Virus genome (UHGV): UHGV-0364842
Strand: one strand, 5' to 3'
Length of the DNA: 28,424 nt
Origin: a virus
Below the pieces are notes generated by a model that was given only the letters and a program-made list of their open reading frames with translations, searched no databases and was not told the origin of the DNA. A program made the position numbers and the translations under genes. How positions within the stretch are numbered: position 1 is the first letter of the stretch; each line of letters opens with the position of its first letter. Of this stretch, positions 3,060 through 25,320 are shown piece by piece.

Positions 3060-3404
3060 ATGTCAGATTTGGCTATGAAAGTTTTGAAATGGCAATCGAC
3101 TGGCGATGTCGGCATCAGTAGCGCAACTCTTGCCTCAATCGCATGTGGACTGAAAAAGAATATCTATGGTCATCACTTTGGAGCTCCCCATGACGCAGCC
3201 GATTTCCGACGATGCGTTGCACTTGTTGAGCAGATCCCAGAAATCAGAGATTCATTCGACAAGGTTGCAAAGCGCGTTCCGGCATTCAAAGGCATCCTCA
3301 ACGAATGGGATTCCCTCGTTGCTCTGTTGAAATCTGAAATGAAGATACACGGAAACAAAGCACCAGAGACTTACAGAAGAATTAGCGAGTTACGCAAGGA
3401 CTAA
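3060..3404 (+). CDS. hypothetical phage protein
   Basis: 114-aa ORF with a GGAGA RBS; no recognisable domain. Confidence 0.45.
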   Translation: MSDLAMKVLKWQSTGDVGISSATLASIACGLKKNIYGHHFGAPHDAADFRRCVALVEQIPEIRDSFDKVAKRVPAFKGILNEWDSLVALLKSEMKIHGNKAPETYRRISELRKD

Positions 3405-3730: not shown

Positions 3731-3979
3731 AATAGCGGGTAAAATATTTCTCACATCTAAAAAATACCATTCCAATCAATCCCCTGCTGTCTCAAGTAGA
3801 TGTCTGCAGGGGACACCATTTATCAGTTCGCTCCCATCCGTACCAGTCCGCAAAATCCCCTGAATATCAAGCCTTCCGTAGATTCACGGTTCGTCATGGT
3901 TCGCGTCAGATCGTTGACAGCCGCACACCATGACGGGTAAAAAGTGGATAAAATAATTTTACCCACCGGATTTTTACCC
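3722..3979. other. candidate attP / integrase arm-site region (GGGTAAAA direct and inverted repeats)
   Basis: GGGTAAAAT at 3725-3733 and 3737-3745, GGGTAAAAA at 3935-3943, inverted TTTTACCC at 3957-3964 and 3972-3979; an 8-bp inverted repeat TCCCCTGC...GCAGGGGA lies between them. Confidence 0.3.
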
Positions 3980-5125
3980 ATGCTCACCGTTAAGCAGATT
4001 GAAGCAGCAAAGCCGAAAGAAAAACCATACCGCCTACTCGATGGTAATGGCCTGTACCTTTATGTCCCTGTGTCAGGGAAAAAGGTATGGCAGCTTCGCT
4101 ACAAGATTGACGGTAAGGAGAAAATCCTGACCGTAGGAAAATATCCGCTAATGACTTTGCAGGAAGCAAGAGATAAAGCATGGACCGCGAGGAAAGACAT
4201 CTCGGTTGGCATCGATCCGGTAAAAGCGAAAAAGGCTTCGTCTAACAACAATTCCTTTAGTGCGATTTACAAGGAATGGTACGAGCACAAGAAGCAAGTC
4301 TGGTCAGTAGGCTATGCAAATGAACTTGCAAAAATGTTTGATGACGACATTTTACCTATCATCGGCGGCCTTGAAATTCAGGATATTGAGCCGATGCAAC
4401 TGCTGGAAGTAATCCGCAGATTTGAAGATCGCGGTGCAATGGAGCGAGCAAATAAAGCCCGCAGAAGATGCGGCGAGGTTTTCCGTTACGCTATTGTCAC
4501 TGGTAGGGCTAAATATAACCCGGCACCTGACCTTGCTGACGCCATGAAGGGATACCGCAAGAAAAACTTCCCGTTTCTTCCTGCAGACCAGATCCCGGCA
4601 TTTAACAAAGCACTGGCAACATTTTCAGGAAGCATCGTATCGCTCATTGCGACCAAGGTTTTACGCTATACAGCCCTCAGAACAAAAGAGCTTCGTTCCA
4701 TGCTATGGAAGAACGTCGATTTTGAAAACAGGATTATCACCATCGACGCCAGTGTGATGAAGGGACGCAAAATTCATGTAGTTCCTATGTCAGACCAGGT
4801 AGTTGAACTTCTCACTACGCTAAGCTCAATCACCAAACCAGTATCAGAGTTTGTTTTTGCCGGGCGCAACGATAAGAAAAAGCCAATCTGCGAGAACGCG
4901 GTGCTACTTGTGATCAAACAAATCGGCTATGAGGGTCTGGAAAGCGGTCACGGATTCAGGCATGAATTCAGCACGATTATGAACGAGCACGAATGGCCTG
5001 CTGATGCTATTGAAGTGCAACTGGCACATGCCAACGGCGGATCTGTGCGCGGGATTTACAACCATGCTCAGTATCTCGATAAGCGCAGAGAAATGATGCA
5101 GTGGTGGGCTGATTGGTTAGGGTAG
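3980..5125 (+). CDS. int: tyrosine integrase, P4/IntA-like
   Basis: N-terminus MLTVKQIEAAKPKEKPYRLLDGNGLYLYV is typical of P4-type integrases; C-terminal catalytic region with the HxxR...Y pattern. An in-frame GTG at 3944 is an alternative start. Confidence 0.9.
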   Translation: MLTVKQIEAAKPKEKPYRLLDGNGLYLYVPVSGKKVWQLRYKIDGKEKILTVGKYPLMTLQEARDKAWTARKDISVGIDPVKAKKASSNNNSFSAIYKEWYEHKKQVWSVGYANELAKMFDDDILPIIGGLEIQDIEPMQLLEVIRRFEDRGAMERANKARRRCGEVFRYAIVTGRAKYNPAPDLADAMKGYRKKNFPFLPADQIPAFNKALATFSGSIVSLIATKVLRYTALRTKELRSMLWKNVDFENRIITIDASVMKGRKIHVVPMSDQVVELLTTLSSITKPVSEFVFAGRNDKKKPICENAVLLVIKQIGYEGLESGHGFRHEFSTIMNEHEWPADAIEVQLAHANGGSVRGIYNHAQYLDKRREMMQWWADWLG

Positions 5126-5214
5126 CCATCCTTGGCATTAACACAGCATTTTTACGCAACAACACGGCACACCACGTTACGCGTCGGCACAGTGCGACAC
5201 GCGGATGTCACAAA

Positions 5215-7593
5215 TTAAACAGTGTATCCAGAAAATACGTATCGCTGAGTAACTGATGCTTCTGCTTGTATCTCAATTCCAGTTGAGCTAACTACGCAGT
5301 TAACTTCAAAAGATGTTGCTGAACCGATATTCATCGCAAACGTTCCGTTATTAACTCCTGTAGTTTTAGTAACTTTCTCTCCTGTTGACTTAGTAAATTC
5401 GATCGTTGTTGCTGTTGAACTTTTTGATATCGTGAATTTTAAATTACGATCACCAGAATCGCCATTATTTATAATAATAAATCTATCTCCAGTAGCGATA
5501 TTAGTAGTGGTTGGTACCCCAACCCTAAATAATACAACTGGAGATGATGAAATTCCATCAAACCCAACACGCATAATACCAACTGAGTTCCATAAGTGAC
5601 CAAAGTCTAACTCTGTACCAGATAGTACATTCCCGGTGCATGTACACATATCTGATAACGTAGGGTTTGATGATGGATTAGTTATCCTGCATCTTGTTTT
5701 TGAATTAAACTTATTATCAGAAATGACAAGATTCATATTAGAATACCCATCATTGTTAGTGGTGTAATCAGTAAATACAGTAAGGTCGCCAAACATACCT
5801 TTGTTATTTGATATATTCAGTGTGCCAGTAAACCCGCCACCACCAGATTGACTACCTGTGTTCATTTGCACCAATCCAACTACTAACGCATCTGGCAGAT
5901 CGAAAATATTGTCCGTAACCGTAATCTGCTGACGCAAGTTGTACGGGTACAAAGAAACACGTACAAAGTTAGTGCTAGTATTAGCAGGTGAAGAGAAGTG
6001 ACAGCCGGATATAACTACGTTAGTTAGAGGTGTGCCATTCGCAACGTAGTTAAGAGTAATTAGCTCGATATCACAGTTATGAATATGCACGAACCTATTA
6101 CCATACACCAACGGACCTACTGTTGGTGATCCTACCCAATCGCGTGTTTCTGCGAACAGGAATGTACCCTTGGAGTTGGCAAGTGTAATGTCCGGGAATA
6201 GCTCCTGCATGACACTGACGTAGTTACGGCGGTAGAACCAGCGCTTGTTAGTGCTACTGTACTGATAGGCCTCTTTGATTTTATGCGGCACCATAAGGCA
6301 GGAGTTCCAGCCAATGCAGTCTTCGATAGTGATATCACTCTCTTGAACAAGGTGCGCTTTATTGTAAATGTCGTACATTTCTAGAGTAGCATTAGATCTG
6401 CATTTAACTCCTTTTTGATATCCTTTGTAATGGCTAAGTGACCAGCAAGACACTAACGCCATTGCTGTATATCCGTTAGAACCATCTGCCCAAAAATCGT
6501 CATCATTATCAATAGAGTAGTCATGTATTGAAACGTTCTTCATAGCATGGCGAATTTGTTTTTCGTAGATATTTTCGTTAACACTACCTATTTGTATAAA
6601 TGTGCCAGCCATATTATGAACTGTGAAATTTGAAATATCTATTGTCTCGTGAGGGAAGTCTCGCGTAAGAAGAATGAAATCGTAAGGACTCTCAGCGTGA
6701 AAATGCGTTAATGAAATGCTATCGCAACCATAGCTTACTTCATCTGGATTTATATTTAATGGGCCGATCGCAGTAAATATTTCAACCCGACCAGTTGTAT
6801 AGAATTTAGATGCTTTTATGGATTTTATTTTTGTTATTGATCCATCAACCACACCAACCAGCCTTGGCCTGATAGATGAAATTTCGCTGCCATGGACAAT
6901 GAAATCTTCACCATAGAAATACCCATTTGTTTTTAAATAAAAGTTATAACCGTTACCTGGGTATATATCCCCACCCCCCCAAATATTAAGGAAAGATACT
7001 GAAATATTCATATCATCAGGAAGATATACGGATTTACCCATTAGATTTAGATTGACACCGCCAAACAAAGACTCCATCTCTTCAAGAGCGGTTTTGTTTA
7101 AAGACGCTGATAGCGGTGCATTATAAACGCCACCAAATGCGGATATGTCACCGTTCATCCATGATAAATACTTATCAAGTGATGCGTTAGATACATTTTC
7201 ACCTGAATGATGAATATATGATGTCCCATTTGGTTCAACCAGTCTTTGAGCCAACTGATCAGGGTCGTATTTCAGCACATTCGGAAAATAGAACTGCTGT
7301 GCACCATACGCATCATAAACAGCCATAGAATGGCCTTGCACGGTAACGAATTTGGCAATCTGTCCGTTATATACCGGATATCCGGCAGCGTTAATGATGA
7401 TTGGTTGCGAAACAGGAACGTGAGAACCGTCTTCGTTCTCCACATAAACCTGAATCTGGTTTTCAGGATTTACCGGGTCAGTGTCAATTTTACCGATATA
7501 AATTTTTCCATTGGCTACGGCTTTAAAAGAACGCGCCATAGTGAAGAGTTGCGAAGGCATGCTTACCACAACATTGGCTGTAATGTCTGTCAT
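5215..7593 (-). CDS. tailspike protein: P22 gp9-like head-binding domain with a divergent receptor-binding domain
   Basis: The first ~115 aa closely match the recalled P22 tailspike N-terminus ([11 protein letters not shown]...VLKYDPDQ); the remaining ~680 aa are unrelated to the P22 endorhamnosidase domain. Confidence 0.9.
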
Positions 7594-7693: not shown

Positions 7694-8617
7694 TCAGTAG
7701 CTATGTACTGAAGGAGGTAATTCTTTATTCTTAAGTCTCATCCATGCGGAAAGATTCGTTGGTCCGTCTGGCTCATTGATATCAACATCTCGTGTGTGAT
7801 TGATTAAAACGTCCCTCGCCATTCCGATAACATACGAGAACTCATGACCGTAGTCGTAGCATCTGCCGGAATAATTCGATTGAATTTGTTTTAGCGCCGG
7901 ATACAGTTCGCGGAATAATGCCTGTGAGCGGTTGGCATAATCCCATAACCATACAAGGCTGTTTGCTTCTTTTGCAGAAAGCTCGTTGGTTTTCTTCTCT
8001 TGTTTGCCAATGAACTCACCTTCAAGCGGAACGCGAGCAGCAAGTGACAGTGCTTCGGTAAACTGCTCCTCACTGATTTCTTTGTACGAACATCCAAAAT
8101 GGGATTTCAGTGACGACCACATGGTGATCATCGCCTTAGCCTGTTTTTCTTTTGGCAGAGACTGACCGCGACTCATGACGAGTTGTTTAATGGCTTCCTG
8201 CTGTTCAGTGGTGATTTTACCCGGCAACGCTTTTTTAGCTTTGCGTGGGTTAACTACATGGCCTTTAGTCCAGTACTCGTATAGCACATCGTCACACTCT
8301 TCTTGATACTGGATTACATTGTCGCGGATTTCAGGGCGGACTTTGTTAGGGCTGATGGTTTGCAACCAGCCATTCAGTTTACGTAAAGCAAGGCAAATCA
8401 TGGTCTGCACACCGCCAACTGAAGGTATTGCGATTTCCACAATACCTTTAGCAAATCTTTGTTTTAACTTTGTAAACTGTGAAGCCCAATCCATACCCAT
8501 TCCCTCAACGATAGGTTTCATTGGGGTGTACGGCTCACCGTTGTGATTGACAACATAAAGCTCTGCGCCGTGGAATGGTACATTGATAGTAGATACTGCT
8601 GTTGCTATACTTTTCAT
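7694..8617 (-). CDS. ant: antirepressor Ant
   Basis: 307 aa; N-terminus [23 protein letters not shown] matches P22-type Ant/BRO-N antirepressors; sits downstream of arc. Confidence 0.8.
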
Positions 8618-9126: not shown

Positions 9127-9375
9127 ATGGCAAAGGGTGTGTCAATTTCTCCAACTACGGTAAGAATCCCTGAATCTTTACGCGAGGCTCTTGCTGTTAG
9201 AGCATCAAAAAATGGTCGCTCTGTTAACTCCGAGATCGTCATGATTTTGCAAGCCGCGATTGATGAAGATAGGTCGCCAAAGTCAGTTGAGTCATTTGCT
9301 CAGCAAGAAGCTGACAAATTCAAAGAGGCGCTGCTGGAGACGCTGAAAACCATGTATGGTAAGGATGATAAATAA
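9127..9375 (+). CDS. mnt: Mnt-like repressor (Arc/MetJ family)
   Basis: 82 aa; NGRSVNSEIVMILQAAI resembles the P22 Mnt N-terminal ribbon-helix-helix domain; divergent from arc. Confidence 0.8.
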   Translation: MAKGVSISPTTVRIPESLREALAVRASKNGRSVNSEIVMILQAAIDEDRSPKSVESFAQQEADKFKEALLETLKTMYGKDDK

Positions 9376-9911
9376 TGCTGCACACAATTCATTTCTTATG
9401 CCCCGTTAACACCGCCACTGTTGGGCAACTTCAGAACCACTGTCTCACCGCATTATCTCAAGGCGCAACTGAATTAAATATCCATATATCAAGTCAGGGA
9501 GGGGAAACTGCCGCTGGTTTTACTGCGTATAACTTTCTTAAGTCACTCCCTGTTACCGTTAGAACTCACAACATAAGCAATGTTGAATCCATAGCTAATA
9601 TCGTTTTCCTGGCTGGCTCAGAACGTTTCGCAAACCCATTATCAAGATTCCTGTTACATCCTCTATTATGGGGCTTTGCCACCCCAGCCGCCGACCATGC
9701 CAGACTGAGAGAGTACGGGAAATGCCTCGATAACGATCTTGATCGCTTCGTTGAGACGTTCAATATCGACATCGGAACCCATATTAGGTGGGCATCCCTG
9801 ATAGCAGACTCGACCATTTTGGATGCTAACAAGGCTCTTGAGCATGGCATAATTAATTCCATAAAAACTGCAAGGCTGGCATCCAATCAGGCAAACTGGT
9901 GGGTTGTTTGA
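9375..9911 (+). CDS. ClpP-family serine protease-like protein, N-terminally truncated relative to ClpP
   Basis: 178 aa; aligns with the ClpP core by eye: ISSQGG vs INSPGG; Ser in NVESIAN vs GQAASMG; His in LLHPL vs MIHQP; Asp in ADSTILD vs ERDRFLS; ALEHGIINSI vs AVEYGLVDSI. Start overlaps the mnt stop (TAATG). Confidence 0.6.
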   Translation: MLHTIHFLCPVNTATVGQLQNHCLTALSQGATELNIHISSQGGETAAGFTAYNFLKSLPVTVRTHNISNVESIANIVFLAGSERFANPLSRFLLHPLLWGFATPAADHARLREYGKCLDNDLDRFVETFNIDIGTHIRWASLIADSTILDANKALEHGIINSIKTARLASNQANWWVV

Positions 9912-17613: not shown

Positions 17614-18114
17614 TTATTCGCTCCCGTTATCGCAAGGTTCCTTCCGGTGGAAGTAATTCCAACCGTTCCACTTCGCCAACTGGTTACCGCTACCAACAGG
17701 CATACGGTTTGGATAACCGGACTTACATTTAGCGGCTTTTGCTCTGTCCATTGCAGACAGTTTGACGAGTCGCTCTTTCCCGTATCTGGCAGTGGTTATA
17801 AGTTTTGCAGACGCTTCCAGCGCATAATCTGGAGCAATGCGGCAGGCAAGGTTGAAAATGACGGCATTGATAGCGTTATTTGATAAACCGTGCTCATCGC
17901 CCGGATCCGGAGCAACATCTGCATCAGCAAAAATGTAGCCAACGTTGATACCAGGTGACGCATCACCGCCAAGCCATTCAGCCATCATCATTTCAAGGTC
18001 GTTGACGCCGTCTTCCATAGACTGCGGTTCGACATCTGTTAACGTGGCATTTGATGCCACACCGAGCTTACGTAATGCCGCAAGAACTAAATCACCCTTC
18101 GTTGTCAGGTTCAT
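17614..18114 (-). CDS. head completion / tail adaptor protein, gp4-like
   Basis: Start set at the internal ATG (18114), giving [33 protein letters not shown], which matches the recalled P22 gp4 N-terminus; 166 aa. Confidence 0.75.
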
Positions 18115-18328
18115 CTGCTGCCGCCTTAGGTTTTCTACCAGGCTTTTTACGCTGTTTTTCTTCTGGCTCTGGCTCTGGCTCTGCAACATCCTTCAGAAGA
18201 TCATCAGGATGTGCAAACCAGCCAGCATCCAGATATTCCTGAAGCTCTTCGGCTTTCACGATTTCAAAGTCGTATCCAACGCCTTTCCACTTCTTCATGT
18301 CTCCATGACGAAAGATCATGTGTGTCAT
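18092..18328 (-). CDS. small hypothetical protein between coat and gp4
   Basis: 78 aa from ATG 18328 (GGAG RBS); acidic EPEPEPE stretch and basic tail; P22 has a small ORF at this position (from memory). Confidence 0.4.
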
Positions 18329-18340
18329 GCTTGTCTCCAG

Positions 18341-18364
18341 ATAAAAAAGGGAGCCGAAGCTCCC
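18341..18364 (-). terminator. rho-independent terminator downstream of the coat gene
   Basis: On the minus strand: GGGAGC-TTCG-GCTCCC followed by TTTTTTAT, immediately after the coat stop codon. Confidence 0.65.
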
Positions 18365-18372
18365 TCTGGTTA

Positions 18373-19668
18373 TCACGCGGTCTGGTTAGGCAGACCAACA
18401 CCAATTGCCTCTGGTCGTACAGCACATGCTGAATACCACACAGCAATACGGCACTTACCAGACAGAGTATTGATATCACCCTGCGTTGCGAAGATGCCGT
18501 TAACACCAATACCAGGAATGCTGAAGGAAGAAGTTTTCATGCCAGCAAACAGTTCATGGGTTACCGGGATCGGCTGAGACAGCAGACGGATTGAGTCATC
18601 AGCCCAGAACACGTTAGCGGTGGTTGTTGCCACGTTCAGAACGTTTACCGGAGTGGCATCAGCAAGATGGGTGTTTACGTTAGCGTAAGCCTTCTCTTCT
18701 TTTGTCAGTGACGCGTCATCCAGCGCAATCGGCTTCGGCGTGATTTCGATGTGAGTACCATCGATCACACGGGTGATTGAGAAAGTCGCATCATCAGTCA
18801 GCACGTTCTTCGCCATCTGAGACAGGAATTTCACACCAGTGAAGCTGATTTTGTCGCCGCGCTTAAATCCGGTGGTGGAGGATACGGTCACCGTTGCAAC
18901 ACGGTTATCGACGTTCTCTTTGTTACCATCGGTATCAAGGGTGTATGCCTGCGGCTTAAACTTCTGCGCACCAGAAACAGTTACACCAGTAGCGGTTGAC
19001 TTGGTAACTGCGGGAAGTTTCGGTGAGCGAAGAATTTCATCAAAGCCAGCAATCTGACGCTGAATAGTACCGTTGCGATACGCTTCTTCAGGAACGCGAC
19101 CGAAGATGTCACCATCTACCAGGTTGCGGCCTGCTTTGCGGTAATCGTCAGGGTTCAGGAAGTAACTGATGCCCATATCGCGGTTTAGCTCACGGGAGAA
19201 CATCAGGCGCTCTGCATCAGACACAAAATCCCAGCCAGACAGGCCAGTCGATGGACCAATTGCGCGGGTATCGTGAACAACAAGCGAGCCCATTTCAGTT
19301 GCCTGTTTGGCAATCGCTGACTCAATGTTATTCGCCAGTTTTTTGGCGGATGCCTGGATGCGGCGACGGTAAGAACGCTCATCACGCAGGTCATCTGCAC
19401 GAAGCTCGAAGAAATCGTTATCCGGATCACCCATGTTGCATTTCACGGAGAGTTCCAGAATCCCGGTTGCGTTGCCAGTTAAATCCCAGCCAGTCTGGGT
19501 TGGCGCTTCCTGCTCAACAGGCATCCACACGGTGTTGCTTGAACGCTGCATGGATTCTGCCGGAGGGGTGTATTTTGTCACTTTGGACGCCATTGGCGTC
19601 AGGTTCTGGACGGTTTCGATGATTTCATCGATAGCGTAAGTAACTAACTGCCCTTCTTTGAGAGTCAT
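18373..19668 (-). CDS. major coat protein, gp5-like
   Basis: 431 aa; extensive identity to the recalled P22 coat protein (EIIETV..., [27 protein letters not shown]). Confidence 0.9.
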
Positions 19669-19735
19669 ATATTGAATACCTTACTTTCTTTATGTGCTAT
19701 ACTATTGTTATATCAACATATAGCGCATTAGGGTT

Positions 19736-20257
19736 ATGAGCATGGAACTGAATGAATACTTCGAATACCGCGATGGCTCTTTGGTTTGGAAAGCCAGAAG
19801 CTCTGAATTTTTCAACAACAAAAAGAATCGCAACTATCACAACGTTTGGAATGCAAAACACGCTGGGAAAGTTGCTGGTCTTTTAGAAAGCAATGGATAT
19901 ATCCGCATAAGAATTAACGGCATTAAGTGGCTAGCACACCGCATCGTATGGGTGATGTTTAACGGAGATATTCCAGAAGGCATGGAAATTGACCATATAA
20001 ATGGGATTCGCCACGACAACAGAATTGAAAATCTTCGTCTTGTGAAAAAATCAGCAAACCAAAGGAATAGAATCAAACTATCTAAAAATAACTCCAGCGG
20101 AATATCTGGAGTTTACTTTTGCAACACGCGGAAAAGATGGATCGCTCATAAGCGACTGCTTAATGCAAGAGTGCAAAAAGTATGTTCTTCATTCGAAGAG
20201 GCGAAAGAAGTAATCAGAAAGTTTGACGAGGAAAACAACATCACGATATCGAAATAA
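19736..20257 (+). CDS. HNH homing endonuclease with AP2-type DNA-binding domain
   Basis: 173 aa; IDHINGIRHDNRIENLRLV HNH motif, then GISGVYF...RWIA AP2-like motif; AT-rich; opposite strand to the flanking structural genes. Confidence 0.75.
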   Translation: MSMELNEYFEYRDGSLVWKARSSEFFNNKKNRNYHNVWNAKHAGKVAGLLESNGYIRIRINGIKWLAHRIVWVMFNGDIPEGMEIDHINGIRHDNRIENLRLVKKSANQRNRIKLSKNNSSGISGVYFCNTRKRWIAHKRLLNARVQKVCSSFEEAKEVIRKFDEENNITISK

Positions 20258-21169
20258 TTATCGAATTCCTTTATTCAGTTGCACCTTGAGCTTGCGGTAT
20301 GTCTCTACATCCCCTTTGTTTGCTGCCGCTTCCATCTGCTTTTCAATCGCAGATATATTTGCAGCAACAGCGTGTCCCTGAATGGGTTCATCAGGTAGCG
20401 GGGCTTCTGAAACAGGTTTGGCTCGAGGCTTGAGAGTTAAACGTTCTGACAGTCGAGTGAGTTCAATCAGCGCGGATTGCCCGTCCATCGCCAGCAACTG
20501 GCGTGTTTTCTCAGGATTAGCACCAAGGTGATACATGAGAGCGGCGGATTTCTCCGGGAAGAGGCGCATGATGTCGGCACCGACTGCTGGCGGCACCAGT
20601 TGCATGAATGCATCCTCTTTCTCCTGATAGTCAGGGATATTGAGCTTTTCCGCTGCGTCGTAGTGCTTACGGGCTGCCTCGACGTATTGCGCTGATTGCT
20701 GGGTGAACTCCTGAGTTTTGCGACCCTGCTCGGCGACAGCCTGGCTTCGTGCGTCCATAGCCTTGATCTGCCATTCACTGTTTGCCTGCTGGAAGGCAGC
20801 CAGTGCGCGGCTCTGGTCATAGTCGTACTTAGCCAGTGCATCTTCGGAAAGATAATCGTTAGGGTCTGGTTGTTTTGGTAACTCAGGGTTCACCCGCAGG
20901 TGCTCCGGCAATTCTCCACGCTTAACCGCTTCCATCTGCTGCTCAAGCTCACGCTGGCGTTTGCGTTCGATGCGGCGACGGGCAAATTCAGCATTAGTTG
21001 CCGGGTCTTGTTTTGGTTTCTCATCGTCTTTCAGGACAATCTCGAAGCCTTCTTCCTGACCTGCGTTGTCGTTGGCATTATCGACAACTAAGCCATCAGC
21101 AGATGCCGCTGCATGATTGCCGGGCAGGGTTAATTCTTCAGAAGCCTGAATGTCGGTGGTTTGGTCCAT
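20258..21169 (-). CDS. scaffolding protein, gp8-like
   Basis: 303 aa, the same length as P22 gp8 and near-identical over long stretches (e.g. [59 protein letters not shown]). Confidence 0.9.
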
Positions 21170-21182
21170 GATTAACTCTCTC

Positions 21183-23348
21183 TTATTGAGGTGTCTCGGC
21201 TACTCCGCCGGAGGGGATTTGAACTTGACGCATAAGATTCGCGAAATCCATGCGTTGTGAATGAGTCTGGTCTGCATCTTTAAGAAGCAGCTCAGCGTTA
21301 GCACGAGCATCTTTGCTGCGCTGTTGCTGGAATTGACCTACGAGCTTGAGGTACTCACGCAGTTCTGCCTGCTTGTCGAGGTCCATATTGTTGAAGATTT
21401 CCGCAATCTTCGCGGCGTTGAGTTGGTTTTGGGCTTCAACCTTGGCGGCTTCAACCTGAATCTGCGCCTGTTGGTTCTCTGCCTTGAGCAATTCAGCCTG
21501 ACCTTGCAGAAGGATACCCTGCGCCTGAATTTGCTCTGCTGATGGCTGCTGCGGCTGTTGTTGTGCCTGCTGCACCATCTCCATCTCTTCAGGTGTTTCT
21601 GGTTTCTTCAGCCCCATCATCACCAGTTGCTTGTTCGCGTACTCTCGCATCATCTCGACGCCTTTACCGTCAAGCAGCGTGAAGTATTGCAGCATCAGCA
21701 TCTGGAACTCTGGAGTACCTTGTGGAACCTTGGTGAGTAACTCCTGAATCTCTGCGCGGTTCTGTTCCTTCATACTCTGGAAGGATGGTCCAACGTCTGT
21801 ATAGCACTCATAGCGACCGCGAATGTCGTTGAGTGTGACCACATTGCCGGACTGGTAATCTACAACTTGCGCGTAGAGTTGAACGTCTTTCTCGCTTCCG
21901 TCTTCAAGAGTCAGCGTTACATGGCGAGGAACGTCATAAATATCGTTGACCATTGAGGCATAAATCTCGCCATCACGTCGCATTGCGGTAGCCAGGTTAT
22001 CCTGAAACACGTATGTCTCAAGGTCTGCCCGCATGTTCAGTTGATTGACGGTATCGAAAGCGACCTGAGAGTTTGCTGCCTGCGCATCCACACCAAGACT
22101 AGCCACCTCTTTCACTGCGTTGGTGGCAGCCTCAAGCATGTAAGCGTTGGCTTGCGGCACTTCAGGGTTTTCCATGTAGGAGATTGGACCAATCGGCAGG
22201 TCGTTACCGTTTTCATCGGTCCTGTTCTGCAGATAGTACGGATAGTCATCATTTCCACCGTACATGTATTCGTAGCCTTCGATTTGCTCAGGGAAGAAGG
22301 TCGGTTTCTTCTTCGGTGAACGAGCAACAATATCGGCGTTGAACGACATGATCATGTTACGAAGGCGTTGACCGTCTTTCGTCAGCCTTACCACGCCCTC
22401 GTAGCACTCCTTGTCACCAGCGAATGACCATTCGCCGTACACAGGAACGATTGGGATATGCTCTCCAGCTATCTTCTCGCGGTCTTTCAGTATCTGCGTG
22501 CAGGTGATGATCGACTTATACACACGCCGACGCTTGACCTTACGCTCTGCTACCTTAATGAATCCACGATTAGCCAGGTCGTCGATGACGTCTTTGATAT
22601 CCTGCTGGAAATAGCTGACCGGCTCACCTGTCAGCGGGTCGCGGTAGATGAAGACTTTCTCCTTCTTCTCTTCGACCTCGTAATACTCAGCGACGTAGAC
22701 GACATCATTCGATACCCACGGAAACAGCCATGTATCGTTCGGATTCTGGAAAGATGGCAGCGTGTCAGGATCAATGCCGTAATCCTCTGCGAACTCTTTC
22801 CAGCCATTGCGTGACAAGGCGTTAATCACCGTGCAGTGCTTAGCGTCGCTCTTATCCATCTGCTTGCTGTTTGCGTCCCATATGACGTGTGAGCAGGCTT
22901 CATGGATTGGCAGGCGTCGAATTACCTGATTGTTGCTTGTTGGGTCGTTGTCTTCGTACTGTGTGACCAGACGCCATGCACCAACGCCGGACTCTATCTG
23001 CTCACGAACACCAACGTTAACGGCAATCTTTGCCGTGTTATGGCGCATATCAGTACGATACATCCCCATCAACACATCGGCAGCATCAGGATTAGCGCCG
23101 TCTTTTGGTCTGAAGAGAACGTCGATAGGGTTACGGCGCATCTCTGCGACCAGCTTCCTGACCACCGGGCGGACAACATCGAATTGTCCGCGATATTGCA
23201 GGGTGGTGTAGTTTGATAGCCAGTCATCCCATTGCGACACTCGGCTAAAATACAGGTCATTTGTCGCCTCGGTTCTGGCTTCATCGCTCGCCATCCAGTC
23301 CGCGTCAAACTTACACAGAATGGAATTGAGTCTGTTTTCGTCGGCCAT
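21183..23348 (-). CDS. portal protein, gp1-like
   Basis: 721 aa; strong similarity to the recalled P22 portal ([26 protein letters not shown]-terminal helical barrel region). Confidence 0.9.
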
Positions 23349-24848
23349 TTAAGTTCTCCGTGCGATGGGCCTGATTGGGGCTGGTATCTTTTTCTCTTTT
23401 GGCTTTTTGATGTCGCGCATCATTTTTGCGAAGCGGCGCATCATGTATGCATAGCGAACGGCGGATAGCACGTCGTCGTTAAGCTTGACGATTTTCCCGT
23501 TTTCATCACGGTGATAGAGGCGGAACTCCTCAAAGAATGGCTCACAGGTGTTGAATACTTTGAAGCGACCGTCGAGCATCATGTCTCGCAATTCAGTGAT
23601 GCCAGGCTCAACAGCATTACCGCCATCAGGCCATGTCGCATGCTCCTGCAACATCATAAAACCAGCGTCCGCGTACTGCCCTTTGAGCTGCTCACCGCCG
23701 CCCTTCTCGTGCTGGTTTCCGTCATGAGGCCATGCGGTTGGCACTTTATGCGCCCATGATTTAACGGCTCCCCATGCCTGAACGGCTGTTTTTTCTTTCG
23801 CCTTCCAAACGCGTGAAAGGTAGATTATGTCTGCGTCCTTATCCCACCAAAGCTGAACCTGCGCCTGTGGGTGATCCCATCCGAAATCCATCCCGCCAAT
23901 TACGTAGAAGTGATCAGGACACTCGAACGGCTGACACTTAATCGTCTCTTCCGGTATCTGGAAGATTCGACCGCTACCCATCGTAGGAATACCGCGAGCA
24001 CGCGCCTCTCTCTCATGCTCGGGATAGGATGCGATGATTTGCTCTTTCTGCTCGTCGGTGTAGTGCTCAGCGTCATAGATGGTCATGTTGACCACTTTCT
24101 GCGACTTGCTGGGATTCTTCAGGAACTTGGTAACAACGTCAGACATCCCCATCAGCGGGGTAAACGTCAGAATTGAGAATTGCCCGTATTTGTTGGTACG
24201 GGTAAGGCCTTCGCCATAAATGCTATATGGTGGTTCTTCGTCAAACCACACGCCGTGGATTGTGTCACCCTGCCAGCGAGCACGGCCTTGCGAGTATGGT
24301 TTGAAGTAGCAGATTGAAATGCCATCTTCAACGCCATCAGCCGTGTGATGCTTAACCAGAAGATGATCAACAAGGTTCGGAAAGAAAGGAGACTTCTTCC
24401 AGCTAATGATGTCTTCTTTAGGTATGGAGCCGTAGCCTGGCTCATCATTCTCTTCGATACGACCACACAGGATGCGTTGAGTCGTTTTGGTTACAGTCTC
24501 GTTTGTCTCGCCGCCAATCCAGAAGACAACAGGCTCATAGAAACGCTTACCTTTCCACTCCCCACCATATTTACCATCAGCCGGATAGCCTTTTGTTCCC
24601 GGATAACGCCCGGTAAGGTGAAACGCGACTTCAGCAGCCCCAGTAAATGACTTACCAAGCTGGTTACCAGCCATAAAACAGCGCTCTGGATAGTCATGCC
24701 CGGCATCGATGAACTCACGCTGTTTGCTGTATGGCGTAAATTCATATAGCAGGTGTGTGTTCCGGTAGTTCTCTTCTTCTTCGAGTAGCTCGAGCAATTC
24801 GATTTGCTCTTCGTCGCTCAGGTTATCAAGAATCGCGTCCAGTTCCAC
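23349..24848 (-). CDS. terminase large subunit, gp2-like
   Basis: 499 aa, the same length and position as P22 gp2; conserved N-terminal ATPase and C-terminal nuclease regions. Confidence 0.9.
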
Positions 24849-25320
24849 GGTTGAATAGCTCCTTGATACGAGAGCGTCGCTTATCGCGATCTCCCTTATC
24901 AGGTGTCACGTCTTCAACTTGCGACTGCTCTTTGAGGCCCAAATCACGGGCGATGATGTTAGCGTTGAGAAGGTCAGCGGCTGCGCCAGAGAATTTCTGG
25001 TCGTAGATGATGTCTTCCGCTCGTGATGTGACGTCAGAAAAACCTTCCATTGACCGGAAGGTTCCCCACGTTTGCCTGGTGATATCAAGGAAGGTACACA
25101 ATCCTGAAATAGTCATGGCTCGCATCTTAGGGACATTAGCCTTAATTATTTCTCCCTGATATGAAAATACCTTACCCTCCCATAGCGGGTTATCATCAGC
25201 CCACTCGAAGTATTCACAACAAGCAGCCCACAGCGCCTCAGGCGATTCGAATTTAGGATTTCGCCCATGACTACTGCGGGCCTCCCAAAATCGGTTGCCC
25301 TTTGGTGCTGCCATATTCAT
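24826..25320 (-). CDS. terminase small subunit, gp3-like
   Basis: N-terminus [38 protein letters not shown] and C-terminus match P22 gp3; the central segment is divergent. Start at 25320 or 25314. Confidence 0.85.

Follow-up and report, generated by a model that had tools for sequence, protein, structure and literature searches.

A probable HNH-AP2 homing endonuclease cassette between the scaffold and coat genes of P22-like phages, linked to a recoded coat gene start

Among homing endonuclease genes, those of the HNH-AP2 type form a recognised family (Magnani et al. 2004, cited in PMC10448857), and its members from phages, cyanobacteria and protists share with the protein described here an N-terminal HNH_3 domain followed by a C-terminal AP2 domain. 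The likeness extends to the setting, a small free-standing phage gene beside an essential structural gene. However, the present gene differs from that family in being found in temperate P22-like phages and prophages, where it lies antisense within the late operon. I-HmuI of the Bacillus phage SPO1 has a similar N-terminal beta-strand DNA-binding region and the same catalytic D-H...N...N residues, but it is encoded by a group I intron and has a helix-turn-helix end, whereas the present gene is intergenic, has no Rfam intron match and encodes an AP2-like end. I-HmuI nicks one strand only. In T4, free-standing endonucleases cut the neighbouring gene and co-convert flanking markers (PMC2988022, PMC2790892). 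This "intronless homing" by the T4 Seg proteins and MobE resembles the present case in the intergenic position of the gene, the presence/absence polymorphism and the co-conversion of flanking markers, and also in that the putative cleavage site lies in a neighbouring essential gene and not at the insertion point. The host here, however, is a temperate podovirus instead of a T-even phage. The endonuclease gene runs antisense to the surrounding operon, and its linked tract, at no more than 39 nt, is very short; the cassette must restore translation initiation of the downstream gene, and mobility is deduced from population data, not from crosses. We found no description in the literature of an endonuclease gene at the P22-like scaffold/coat junction. 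It is unmentioned in the Dewey/Louie genome announcement and in the BASEL paper, and the HNH insertions described in the epsilon34 and SEN22 papers are different ones.

The window analysed here is a stretch of viral DNA of 28,424 nt (UHGV virus genome UHGV-0364842). The sequence-only reading had described, between the minus-strand scaffold and coat genes, an antisense, AT-rich ORF of 173 aa on the plus strand, whose stop adjoins the scaffold stop. All of this was borne out. The ORF occupies 19736..20257 (+) and includes IDHINGIRHDNRIENL; RefSeq PGAP places the start of the same gene at the second ATG, at 19742, for a protein of 171 aa. The GC content is 0.38 in the insert, compared with 0.512 in the coat gene and 0.527 in the scaffold gene. 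From its sequence and those of its relatives, the locus is probably (at roughly 80%) a free-standing HNH-AP2 homing endonuclease cassette at the scaffold/coat junction of the P22-like (Lederbergvirus) late operon. The features concerned are as follows.

18373..19668, minus strand: coat gene (Pfam P22_CoatProtein, 1e-164)
19630..19668, minus strand: coat nt 1-39, the recoded tract, inherited with the endonuclease gene
19669..20257, strand not applicable: insert of 589 nt in filled alleles, missing from empty alleles (alignments and BLAST coverage gaps)
19669..19684, minus strand: replacement coat initiation region, GTAAGGTATTCAATAT-ATG on the late strand, with the Shine-Dalgarno sequence AAGGT at 19678-19682
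19695..19703, plus strand: candidate extended -10 element TGcTATACT, read from the sequence and pointing away from the coat gene
19736..20257, plus strand: endonuclease gene, free-standing HNH-AP2 (HNH_3, PHROG_99, I-HmuI alignment, AlphaFold, AP2 profile)
20258..20260, minus strand: scaffold stop codon, adjoining the endonuclease stop (TAA/TTA on the plus strand) and forming the right-hand cassette boundary
20258..21169, minus strand: scaffold gene (Pfam Phage-scaffold, 6e-179)
21183..23348, minus strand: portal gene
23349-25320: terminase genes, separated from the insert by the portal and scaffold genes

Alignment of the junction in relatives (the window and Dewey as filled alleles, Bas106 and APC_JM3.2 as empty ones) bounds the insert to the base and shows the empty site to be the TAATG overlap of the scaffold stop with the coat start. 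The insertion had been placed at 19669-20257, which is exactly what the empty-site relatives are without, bar one shared base. The boundaries are identical in every filled case, and filled alleles are longer than empty ones by 590 bp rather than 589 nt, one base being common to the stop and start codons of an empty allele. The arrangement expected of P22-type phages, with the coat gene directly after the scaffold gene, also holds, as the TAATG overlap is present in L, IME10, Bas106 and APC_JM3.2. The gene is carried by phages Dewey and Louie, which form plaques (PMC12243541), and is missing from IME10, APC_JM3.2, HZ41 and Bas106; Dewey and CurroJimenez/Bas106, both available in culture, come from the same laboratory (PMC12243541, PMC11990801). 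Among 218 complete E. coli genomes with the junction, 20 (about 9%) are filled and about 198 are without the gene. The gene is prophage-borne in the filled strains, which come from varied sources, and since each of these 20 genomes has one junction copy, a test for coexistence of two copies has no power. Empty-site alleles are thus common, in four phages and most E. coli genomes, and they support the earlier view of a selfish mobile insertion. Other types of element are not indicated: no Rfam match to a group I intron was found at E ≤ 1 over 19300-20700, and the position of the insert between the scaffold stop and the coat start does not suit an intein. For an insertion sequence or transposon, no repeat pair was detected around 19669-20257 and no terminal repeats, the sole duplicated element being a diverged copy of the coat ribosome-binding region.

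The endonuclease comprises an N-terminal beta-strand region, an HNH core (residues 66-110) and an AP2-like domain of three strands plus a helix (about 121-166). The HNH motif seen by eye corresponds to a match to Pfam HNH_3 (PF13392) with E = 3.9e-22 and 78 bits against a cut-off of 24.8, in which residues 66-110 align with model positions 2-46 of 46. This score sets the protein apart from the "IPA-HNH" subgroup of ICP1, whose HNH domain is undetected by the HNH_3 model (PMC10448857). PHROG_99, "HNH endonuclease", was matched at E = 1e-50. The closest solved relative is I-HmuI (1U3E), with E = 8e-4 for the single sequence, 3.5e-8 for the family profile and a Foldseek probability of 0.99, and residues D86, H87, N99 and N108 align with D74, H75, N87 and N96 of I-HmuI, which comprise the catalytic general-base histidine and the metal-ligand Asp and Asn residues. 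Seven residues (H68, D86, H87, D94, N95, R96 and N99) are invariant across 70 homologs.

The AP2-like motif of the sequence-only reading stood at the level of the family profile and failed for the protein alone. Searched singly, the protein scored 15.7 bits as a whole and 17.7 bits for its C-terminal 64 aa against Pfam AP2 (PF00847), below the cut-off of 33.3, and the direct match spans only model positions 1-19 of 54; its AP2 domain is thus too diverged to pass the Pfam threshold alone, unlike that of the HNH-AP2 family. The profile of the 70 homologs matched the AP2 domain of WRI1 (E = 1.5e-5) and the AP2/ERF domain of TEM1 (E = 3e-3) in the PDB. PF00847 was matched at E ≤ 0.01 by 44 of the 70 homologs (best 1.4e-11), and both Pfam models, HNH_3 and AP2, by 44 of the 70. 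In the AlphaFold model (pLDDT 89.6), three strands (126-129, 134-140 and 145-150) are followed by a helix (153-166), and the pLDDT there is 86-96. A Foldseek search with this model returned nothing at E ≤ 0.001; its AP2 matches (3IGM, probability 0.85; 7WQ5, 0.80; 6SY0, rmsd 2.1 Å over 48 columns) all had E > 0.01. The family profile supports an AP2-like C-terminal domain, and the confident model is in keeping with one. Empty alleles and HNH/AP2 profile matches, the two points on which the sequence-only reading had staked its claim, were therefore both found. None of the 14 distinct filled haplotypes has a disrupted ORF. Some copies of the gene are decaying, an example being P0005, which is N-terminally truncated.

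The unit that travels extends beyond the ORF. It also takes in 39 nt at the recoded start of the coat gene (19630-19668), a promoter-like element and a duplicate of the ribosome-binding site for coat. The initiation region in the cassette resembles the scaffold 3' end, AAAGGAATTCGATA-ATG, which serves the coat gene in empty alleles, and it is kept in the lineages L005, L006 and L011. Its predicted anti-Shine-Dalgarno pairing is -4.2 kcal/mol in the filled allele, compared with -5.6 kcal/mol in the empty one; the insert breaks the stop/start overlap, yet brings a Shine-Dalgarno sequence whose predicted strength is similar. The sequence-only reading had suggested that the antisense insert could affect scaffold:coat expression ratios; any such effect is hypothetical, and Dewey and Louie, which have the insert, form plaques. 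A pairing of the coat Shine-Dalgarno sequence with coat nt 28-32 of the filled allele was rejected, as it is not kept in L005 and L006. The -10 element reads TGcTATAAT in L005 and TGcTATACT in L006, and its equivalent in L011 is TTGCAT-17 nt-TATAAT. A consensus promoter scanner that needs a -35 hexamer did not report the element at 19695..19703, and the candidate promoter of the endonuclease gene is called solely from the conserved -10 element. A hairpin at 20090-20113 was considered as an attenuator of the late transcript and set aside as incidental: it is terminator-like on both strands, lies within the codons for NSSGISGV, and L006 and L011 have only a weak stem there or none.

The comparison of filled and empty alleles was based on 84 distinct haplotypes (14 filled, 68 empty and two recombinant), the 14 filled ones representing 20 records from the window, Dewey and IMG/VR loci. 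Divergence between filled and empty haplotypes is 35.7% in the first 39 nt of the coat gene, in contrast to 0.7-2.4% per flank window. Fourteen differences are fixed, at coat nt 4, 6, 7, 9, 12, 18, 21, 22, 24, 27, 30, 33, 37 and 39, whereas no site elsewhere in 2.2 kb of flank has a filled/empty frequency difference of at least 0.5 (14/39 in the tract versus 29/1257; Fisher p = 2e-12). The tract is fully associated with gene presence, and the gene was found with an empty-type tract in none of the 14 distinct filled haplotypes and none of the 20 filled E. coli genomes. A recombinant empty allele, with filled-type coat nt 12-39 and no gene, is present in eight genomes of different backbones. In all four carrier lineages, GAAGGGCAG stands at the place of GAAGGTCAA in lineages without the gene. 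Coat codons 6-7 are GGG CAG in each of the four, whereas among 26 distinct coat 5' sequences from lineages without the gene, GGT occurs in 22, CAA in 25 and GGG CAG in none; the wobble positions beside these codons vary freely. A second filled/empty pair (L007 versus L304 and L267) also has excess change in nt 1-39, including nt 18, 21, 24, 27 and 30, although as a replicate it is weak, with 9/39 differences against a background of 12-13%. We infer that coat nt 1-39 represent a co-conversion or cleavage-immunity tract, corresponding to the target region in empty alleles, with coat nt 18 and 21 in particular as candidate immunity positions. The tract could also be hitch-hiking donor DNA with no immunity role, given that the changes are mostly at wobble positions and their density is that of a diverged lineage.

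Diverged P22-like contigs have orthologs, with 82, 74 and 59% identity, at this very junction and likewise antisense, and the divergence of these orthologs tracks that of the coat and scaffold genes. With dN/dS at about 0.06, the ORF is, on the evidence of these comparisons, under purifying selection across diverged lineages. The endonuclease and scaffold stops also abut in L005 and L006, and L011 has an 11-nt spacer. For L006 and L011, the phage collection held no close empty relatives, or only matches of about 70% identity. A degenerate-pattern scan of IMG/VR turned up two relatives of L006/L007 with an empty site, L304 and L267, at about 88%, and neither source yielded a close empty relative of L011 or L005. 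Scanning the GTDB species representatives with the ortholog alignment gave relatives at 49% identity or less only.

Under the homing reading, the most likely place of cleavage is the start of the coat gene. A sigma-70-type promoter belonging to the endonuclease gene would drive its expression, antisense to the late operon; when a carrier phage or prophage meets a relative without the gene, the enzyme would nick or cut at or near the coat start, in a recognition region that probably includes coat nt 13-21 (GAAGGTCAA). Recombinational repair would then copy the cassette together with up to 39 nt of carrier coat sequence. The recoded coat start of the carrier (GAAGGGCAG and neighbouring changes) would be either co-converted donor flank or a protection against self-cleavage. 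Since the scaffold stop and coat start no longer overlap once the insert lies between them, the cassette would supply the coat gene with a ribosome-binding site of its own. Cleavage activity, its position and its form (nick or double-strand break), promoter activity and the timing of expression are inferred only.

A different and, in our view, unlikely explanation is that the cassette is passive, a nuclease-derived "moron" that does not cleave and is spread by homologous recombination of the flanking head genes, the tract being a remnant of the source lineage. Mean r2 in these head genes is about 0.17 at distances up to 50 nt and about 0.04 at 51-100 nt, and with such decay within about 50-100 nt a 630-bp segment could pass between backbones by ordinary recombination. 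Flanking SNPs are not associated with the gene. Linkage equilibrium was dropped as proof of homing, since background disequilibrium is equally low beyond about 50 nt; the missing association is expected from ordinary recombination and is consistent with homing, not diagnostic of it. The general divergence of the tract, in which nearly all wobble positions of codons 2-13 are changed, would also suit a passive cassette, as would the truncated gene copy and the fact that only about 9% of junctions are filled. However, the catalytic residues are intact, and purifying selection on the ORF is strong across lineages with saturated synonymous sites. Hitch-hiking does not explain why GGG-CAG is kept in four carrier lineages while the neighbouring wobble sites have diverged. 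The asymmetry of alleles, in which the gene never occurs with the empty-type tract and the reverse combination exists, also speaks against a passive spread, as does the nucleotide diversity of the 14 filled haplotypes, 0.36% in the insert versus 1.6% in the flanks (about four-fold lower).

A more elaborate version of the homing reading, which we regard as doubtful, is that the enzyme is a sequence-specific weapon, which lysogens express from the promoter of the cassette. It would cut the invariant coat start (GAAGGTCAA) of superinfecting P22-like phages, and the sole escape for these would be to acquire the cassette or the recoded tract, the latter giving the recombinant empty alleles. The insert might in addition retune the scaffold:coat ratio, by uncoupling translation and by antisense transcription into the scaffold 3' end. 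If this were true, a homing endonuclease would have co-evolved with one head-assembly junction across the P22-like group.

It is very improbable that exclusion is the primary role, with a prophage-encoded nuclease, under a promoter of its own, guarding the lysogen or prophage by attacking coat genes in superinfecting P22-like phages without the endonuclease gene, and homing as a by-product. The gene has a conserved sigma-70-type -10 element, antisense to and independent of the late operon, which would fit this role, and so would its carriage by prophages in 20 E. coli strains of varied origin and a putative target in the essential, highly conserved coat 5' end. However, exclusion overlaps homing in mechanism, as in T4 marker exclusion (PMC2988022), and is thus more a refinement of the main explanation than a rival to it. 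Furthermore, no defence-system context was found, in a survey that left out PADLOC. Finally, it is scarcely credible that the gene is a packaging accessory, an HNH partner that terminase requires to package DNA, as HK97 gp74 is in cos phages: although an HNH gene within the head/packaging module might suggest this, P22-like phages package by a headful (pac) mechanism, the gene runs antisense to the packaging operon and does not adjoin the terminase genes, the protein has a sequence-specific DNA-binding domain of AP2 type, and empty-site phages effectively refute the idea, as the gene is missing from about 90% of near-identical relatives, viable phages included.

In sum, the homing endonuclease cassette at this locus is a clear, ordinary case of an already known type of mobile element. 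What is new is the recoded tract, the recombinant empty alleles, the low diversity of the cassette, the conservation of the site among orthologs, and the ribosome-binding site and -10 element of the cassette. For annotation, the cassette explains the recurrent "HNH endonuclease" gene in E. coli P22-like prophages, as well as their hypervariable coat N-terminus (MTLK... versus MALN...). Most work on homing endonucleases has concerned virulent phages such as T4, SPO1 and ICP1, whereas the present group is temperate and genetically tractable. It offers a natural system with three allele classes (filled, empty and recombinant-empty) and boundaries known to the base, and the cultured phages that infect E. 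coli K-12 include both carriers of the gene (Dewey, Louie) and phages that lack it (CurroJimenez/Bas106, IME10). Such a system could show how an insertion mends the translational coupling that it breaks, and what allows an element of this kind to stay at a single junction of an essential operon as the genes on either side diverge by 30-50%.

The window is a genome segment of a P22-like (Lederbergvirus-type) phage and carries the following genes, together with ejection-protein genes and a head-tail adaptor gene.

3944-5125, plus strand: integrase
5215-7593, minus strand: tailspike
7694-8617, minus strand: Ant
18373-19668, minus strand: coat
19736-20257, plus strand: endonuclease ORF of 173 aa, between coat and scaffold and on the strand opposite to both, containing IDHINGIRHDNRIENL
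20258-21169, minus strand: scaffold
21183-23348, minus strand: portal
23349-24848, minus strand: large terminase
24826-25320, minus strand: small terminase

The last base of the endonuclease stop codon is 20257, directly next to the scaffold stop codon at 20258-20260, and the GC content is 0.38 over 19669-20257, against 0.512 in the coat gene and 0.527 in the scaffold gene. The sequence-only reading's description of this ORF, its orientation and the abutting stops was exact to the base. The RefSeq PGAP annotation starts the protein at the second ATG (19742; 171 aa, MELNEY...) instead of the first (19736). This second start may be the real one, because an AGGG at 19730-19733 lies 8 nt ahead of it and only 2 nt ahead of the first; the longer form is the one to which the orthologs align. 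Elsewhere in the window, the convergent integrase and tailspike genes (3944-7593) are 89 nt apart, and no O-antigen conversion genes were found in that gap. Near Ant and on the opposite strand, a 178-aa ORF (9375-9911, plus strand) is similar to S49/ClpP-like PHROGs annotated as "head maturation protease" (phrog_94, E=5e-21); P22-type phages are not known to have a prohead protease, so this one could be a moron or serve in defence. The region directly downstream of coat (17614-18376, minus strand) is variable among close relatives: in the window a 94-aa ORF (phrog_1175) overlaps the 191-aa head-tail adaptor ORF, and in Dewey, Bas106 and APC_JM3.2 small ORFs and adaptors of differing lengths are annotated there.

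Alignment with alleles lacking the gene (empty alleles) showed that the insert is exactly 19669-20257. In the phage collection, the insert recurs at 99% identity in the Escherichia phages Dewey and Louie. It is missing from IME10, APC_JM3.2, HZ41 and CurroJimenez/Bas106, although both of their flanks match at 97%; in empty alleles, and likewise in Salmonella phage L, the stop codon of scaffold overlaps the start codon of coat (TAATG). At a threshold of at least 95% identity, the junction is present in 218 of 5,426 complete E. coli genomes, and 20 of these 218 (strains from humans, poultry, cattle, dog, rat and water) are filled. The four phages and most of the E. coli junctions, all with empty sites, support the proposal of a selfish mobile insertion. 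A transposon was rejected, since no repeats bracketing the insert were found, as was an intron-encoded endonuclease, since Rfam gave no intron match in the insert; a terminase accessory was rejected as well.

The insert is linked to a change in the neighbouring coat gene. Between the window and empty alleles there are 14 differences in coat nt 1-39 (window 19630-19668) but only 25-29 in the other 1,257 nt of the gene (Fisher p=2e-12), and the scaffold side of the insert has no comparable cluster. Among 99 junctions, taken from 92 IMG/VR loci, three E. coli genomes, three GenBank phages and the window, there are 84 distinct haplotypes, of which 14 are filled, 68 are empty and two are recombinant. 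Sites with a filled-empty frequency difference of at least 0.5 were solely coat nt 4, 6, 7, 9, 12, 18, 21, 22, 24, 27, 30, 33, 37 and 39. Filled-empty divergence is 35.7% over coat nt 1-39, and in all other windows it equals the filled-filled and empty-empty values (0.7-2.4%). Eleven of the 14 tract changes are synonymous, and the coat N-terminus (13 residues) is altered between the allele types.

A synthetic junction, in which the filled-type coat start is fused to the scaffold end, was searched against E. coli genomes. Eight complete genomes without the endonuclease gene (namely, ECONIH6, 98195, TO6, NMBU_W05E18, AVS0578, W46, PEC301 and UID2309220041) match it at 97.5%, against about 93% for ordinary empty alleles. 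The three that were read (ECONIH6, 98195 and TO6) combine empty-type coat nt 1-11 with filled-type nt 12-39, and two of them are 31 flank substitutions apart, so that these two lie on different backbones. The converse pairing of the gene with a coat start of the empty type did not occur among the 14 filled haplotypes and the 20 filled E. coli genomes (19 judged by identity to the synthetic junction and one read directly). Such an asymmetry is expected if the enzyme would cut its own genome when this bore the empty-type coat start. The recombinant alleles resemble escape alleles, or short patches left by repair, at a putative break that would lie in coat nt 12-39 or just downstream.

Nucleotide diversity among the 14 filled haplotypes is 0.36% in the insert and 39-nt tract but 1.6% in the flanks (1.7-1.8% within 300 nt to either side), and the ORF is intact in all 14. 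This pattern fits a recent spread of the cassette over already diverged backbones. Some copies are decaying, as an N-terminally truncated endonuclease present in some E. coli genomes (P0005; NCBI E. coli, 102 aa; MGDVYGDIPEGMEIDH...) looks like a frameshifted copy. Within the head genes (18373-21169, 84 haplotypes), mean r2 is 0.17 at 50 nt or less and about 0.04 at 51-100 nt, a sign that the P22-like prophages of E. coli recombine very often. Because background linkage disequilibrium is already so low, the non-association of the gene with flanking SNPs is by itself no evidence for endonuclease-driven transfer.

Identical copies aside, the three nearest homologs in the protein database (82%, 74% and 59% identity by BLASTP) are encoded on metagenomic contigs (loci L005, L006-L010 and L011), again between P22-type scaffold and coat genes and antisense to both. 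Identities to the window are as follows (endonuclease values from pairwise codon alignments, hence 61% for L011 against 59% by BLASTP).

L005: endonuclease 82%, coat 89%, scaffold 75%
L006/L007: endonuclease 74%, coat 72%, scaffold 74%
L011: endonuclease 61%, coat 68%, scaffold 51%

The divergence of the endonuclease therefore follows that of its flanks. Synonymous sites are saturated between lineages and dN/dS is about 0.06 where measurable; judged from these alignments, the element is a long-standing associate of the scaffold/coat junction and is under purifying selection. The abutting stops (TAA|TTA) recur in three of the four lineages. All four keep a Shine-Dalgarno-bearing segment immediately before the coat ATG (GTAAGGTATTCAATAT for the window, AAAGGAATTCGATA for empty alleles). 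Each also has a -10 element, as part of a candidate promoter, ahead of the endonuclease gene; the motif reads TTGCAT-17 nt-TATAAT in L011 and TGcTATACT or TGcTATAAT in the other three. In L011, an 11-nt spacer (3340-3350) and the scaffold stop form a GC-rich hairpin (CAGGGGC-TTACC-GCCCCTG) between the convergent genes; this hairpin, which the other lineages lack, may terminate transcription in both directions.

When IMG/VR was scanned for P22-like coat starts with a degenerate pattern, 120 loci were recovered, and their 26 distinct sequences encode several protein variants. Without the endonuclease gene, coat codons 5-7 are nearly always GAA GGT CAA (GGT in 22 of 26, CAA in 25 of 26), and GAAGGTCAA (coat nt 13-21) is nearly invariant across lineages in which neighbouring wobble positions vary freely. 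None of the 26 has GGG CAG at codons 6-7, whereas all four gene-carrying lineages have GAA GGG CAG. A second, independent comparison, of L007 with its empty IMG/VR relatives L304 and L267 (about 88% identical), gave 9 differences in the 39 nt against a background of 12-13%; those at nt 6, 9, 18, 21, 24, 27 and 30 are common to the window lineage. The two empty relatives differ from each other at 0-1 positions in coat nt 1-99 versus 5-8% elsewhere, so the coat 5' end is unusually conserved; likewise, among P22-like phages without the gene, the first approximately 100 nt of coat are far more conserved than the remainder, which would suit a homing target. From the codon 5-7 pattern, the shared difference positions and this conservation, we predict that, in empty alleles, coat nt 13-21 form part of the recognition site and that immunity is owed in part to G18 and G21.

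The gene is already annotated as "HNH endonuclease" in GenBank and RefSeq, and the HNH assignment made from sequence alone is borne out by Pfam HNH_3 (78 bits; cut-off 24.8), by PHROG_99 "HNH endonuclease" (E=1e-50) and by alignment with I-HmuI, the SPO1 homing endonuclease, which is the nearest solved protein (E=8e-4 for the sequence on its own, 3.5e-8 for a profile built from 70 family members). D86, H87, N99 and N108, which are invariant or nearly so among the 70 homologs, align with I-HmuI D74, H75, N87 and N96, the general base and metal ligands of that enzyme. The AP2-like motif stands at the family level, where the profile finds the WRI1 (1.5e-5) and TEM1 (3e-3) AP2 domains and 44 of the 70 homologs match Pfam AP2, but is weaker for the lone protein, which scores 15.7-17.7 bits (cut-off 33.3) over model positions 1-19 only. 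An AlphaFold model (pLDDT 89.6) folds residues 126-166 into three strands and a helix, and Foldseek ranked I-HmuI first and then several AP2 domains, none at E<=0.001. Among homing endonucleases, an HNH domain with AP2 after it is an established arrangement (PMC10448857, citing Magnani et al. 2004), and by its architecture the protein belongs to the HNH-AP2 family.

On the late transcript, the insert adds 590 untranslated nt between scaffold and coat, and the stop/start overlap is lost. The Shine-Dalgarno sequence of the cassette is predicted to pair with the anti-Shine-Dalgarno almost as well as the original (-4.2 versus -5.6 kcal/mol). Head assembly tolerates the insert, since Dewey and Louie both plaque on E. 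coli K-12 and lysogenise it (PMC12243541, PMC11990801). The scaffold:coat ratio may nevertheless change, and antisense transcription from the candidate promoter may extend into the scaffold gene. A terminator-like hairpin within the endonuclease ORF is not conserved and was disregarded.

The free-standing Seg and Mob endonucleases of T4 perform "intronless homing", with cleavage in a neighbouring gene and co-conversion of flanking markers (PMC2988022, PMC2790892), and the scaffold/coat element appears to behave as such endonucleases do. We found no paper on the position, polymorphism or linked tract of this gene. In short, a mobile homing-endonuclease cassette is well supported (probability about 0.8), with a predicted cleavage site and a candidate promoter. 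Nothing about the locus runs counter to expectation, but it is an exceptionally clear example that lends itself to experiment, in a model group of temperate phages.
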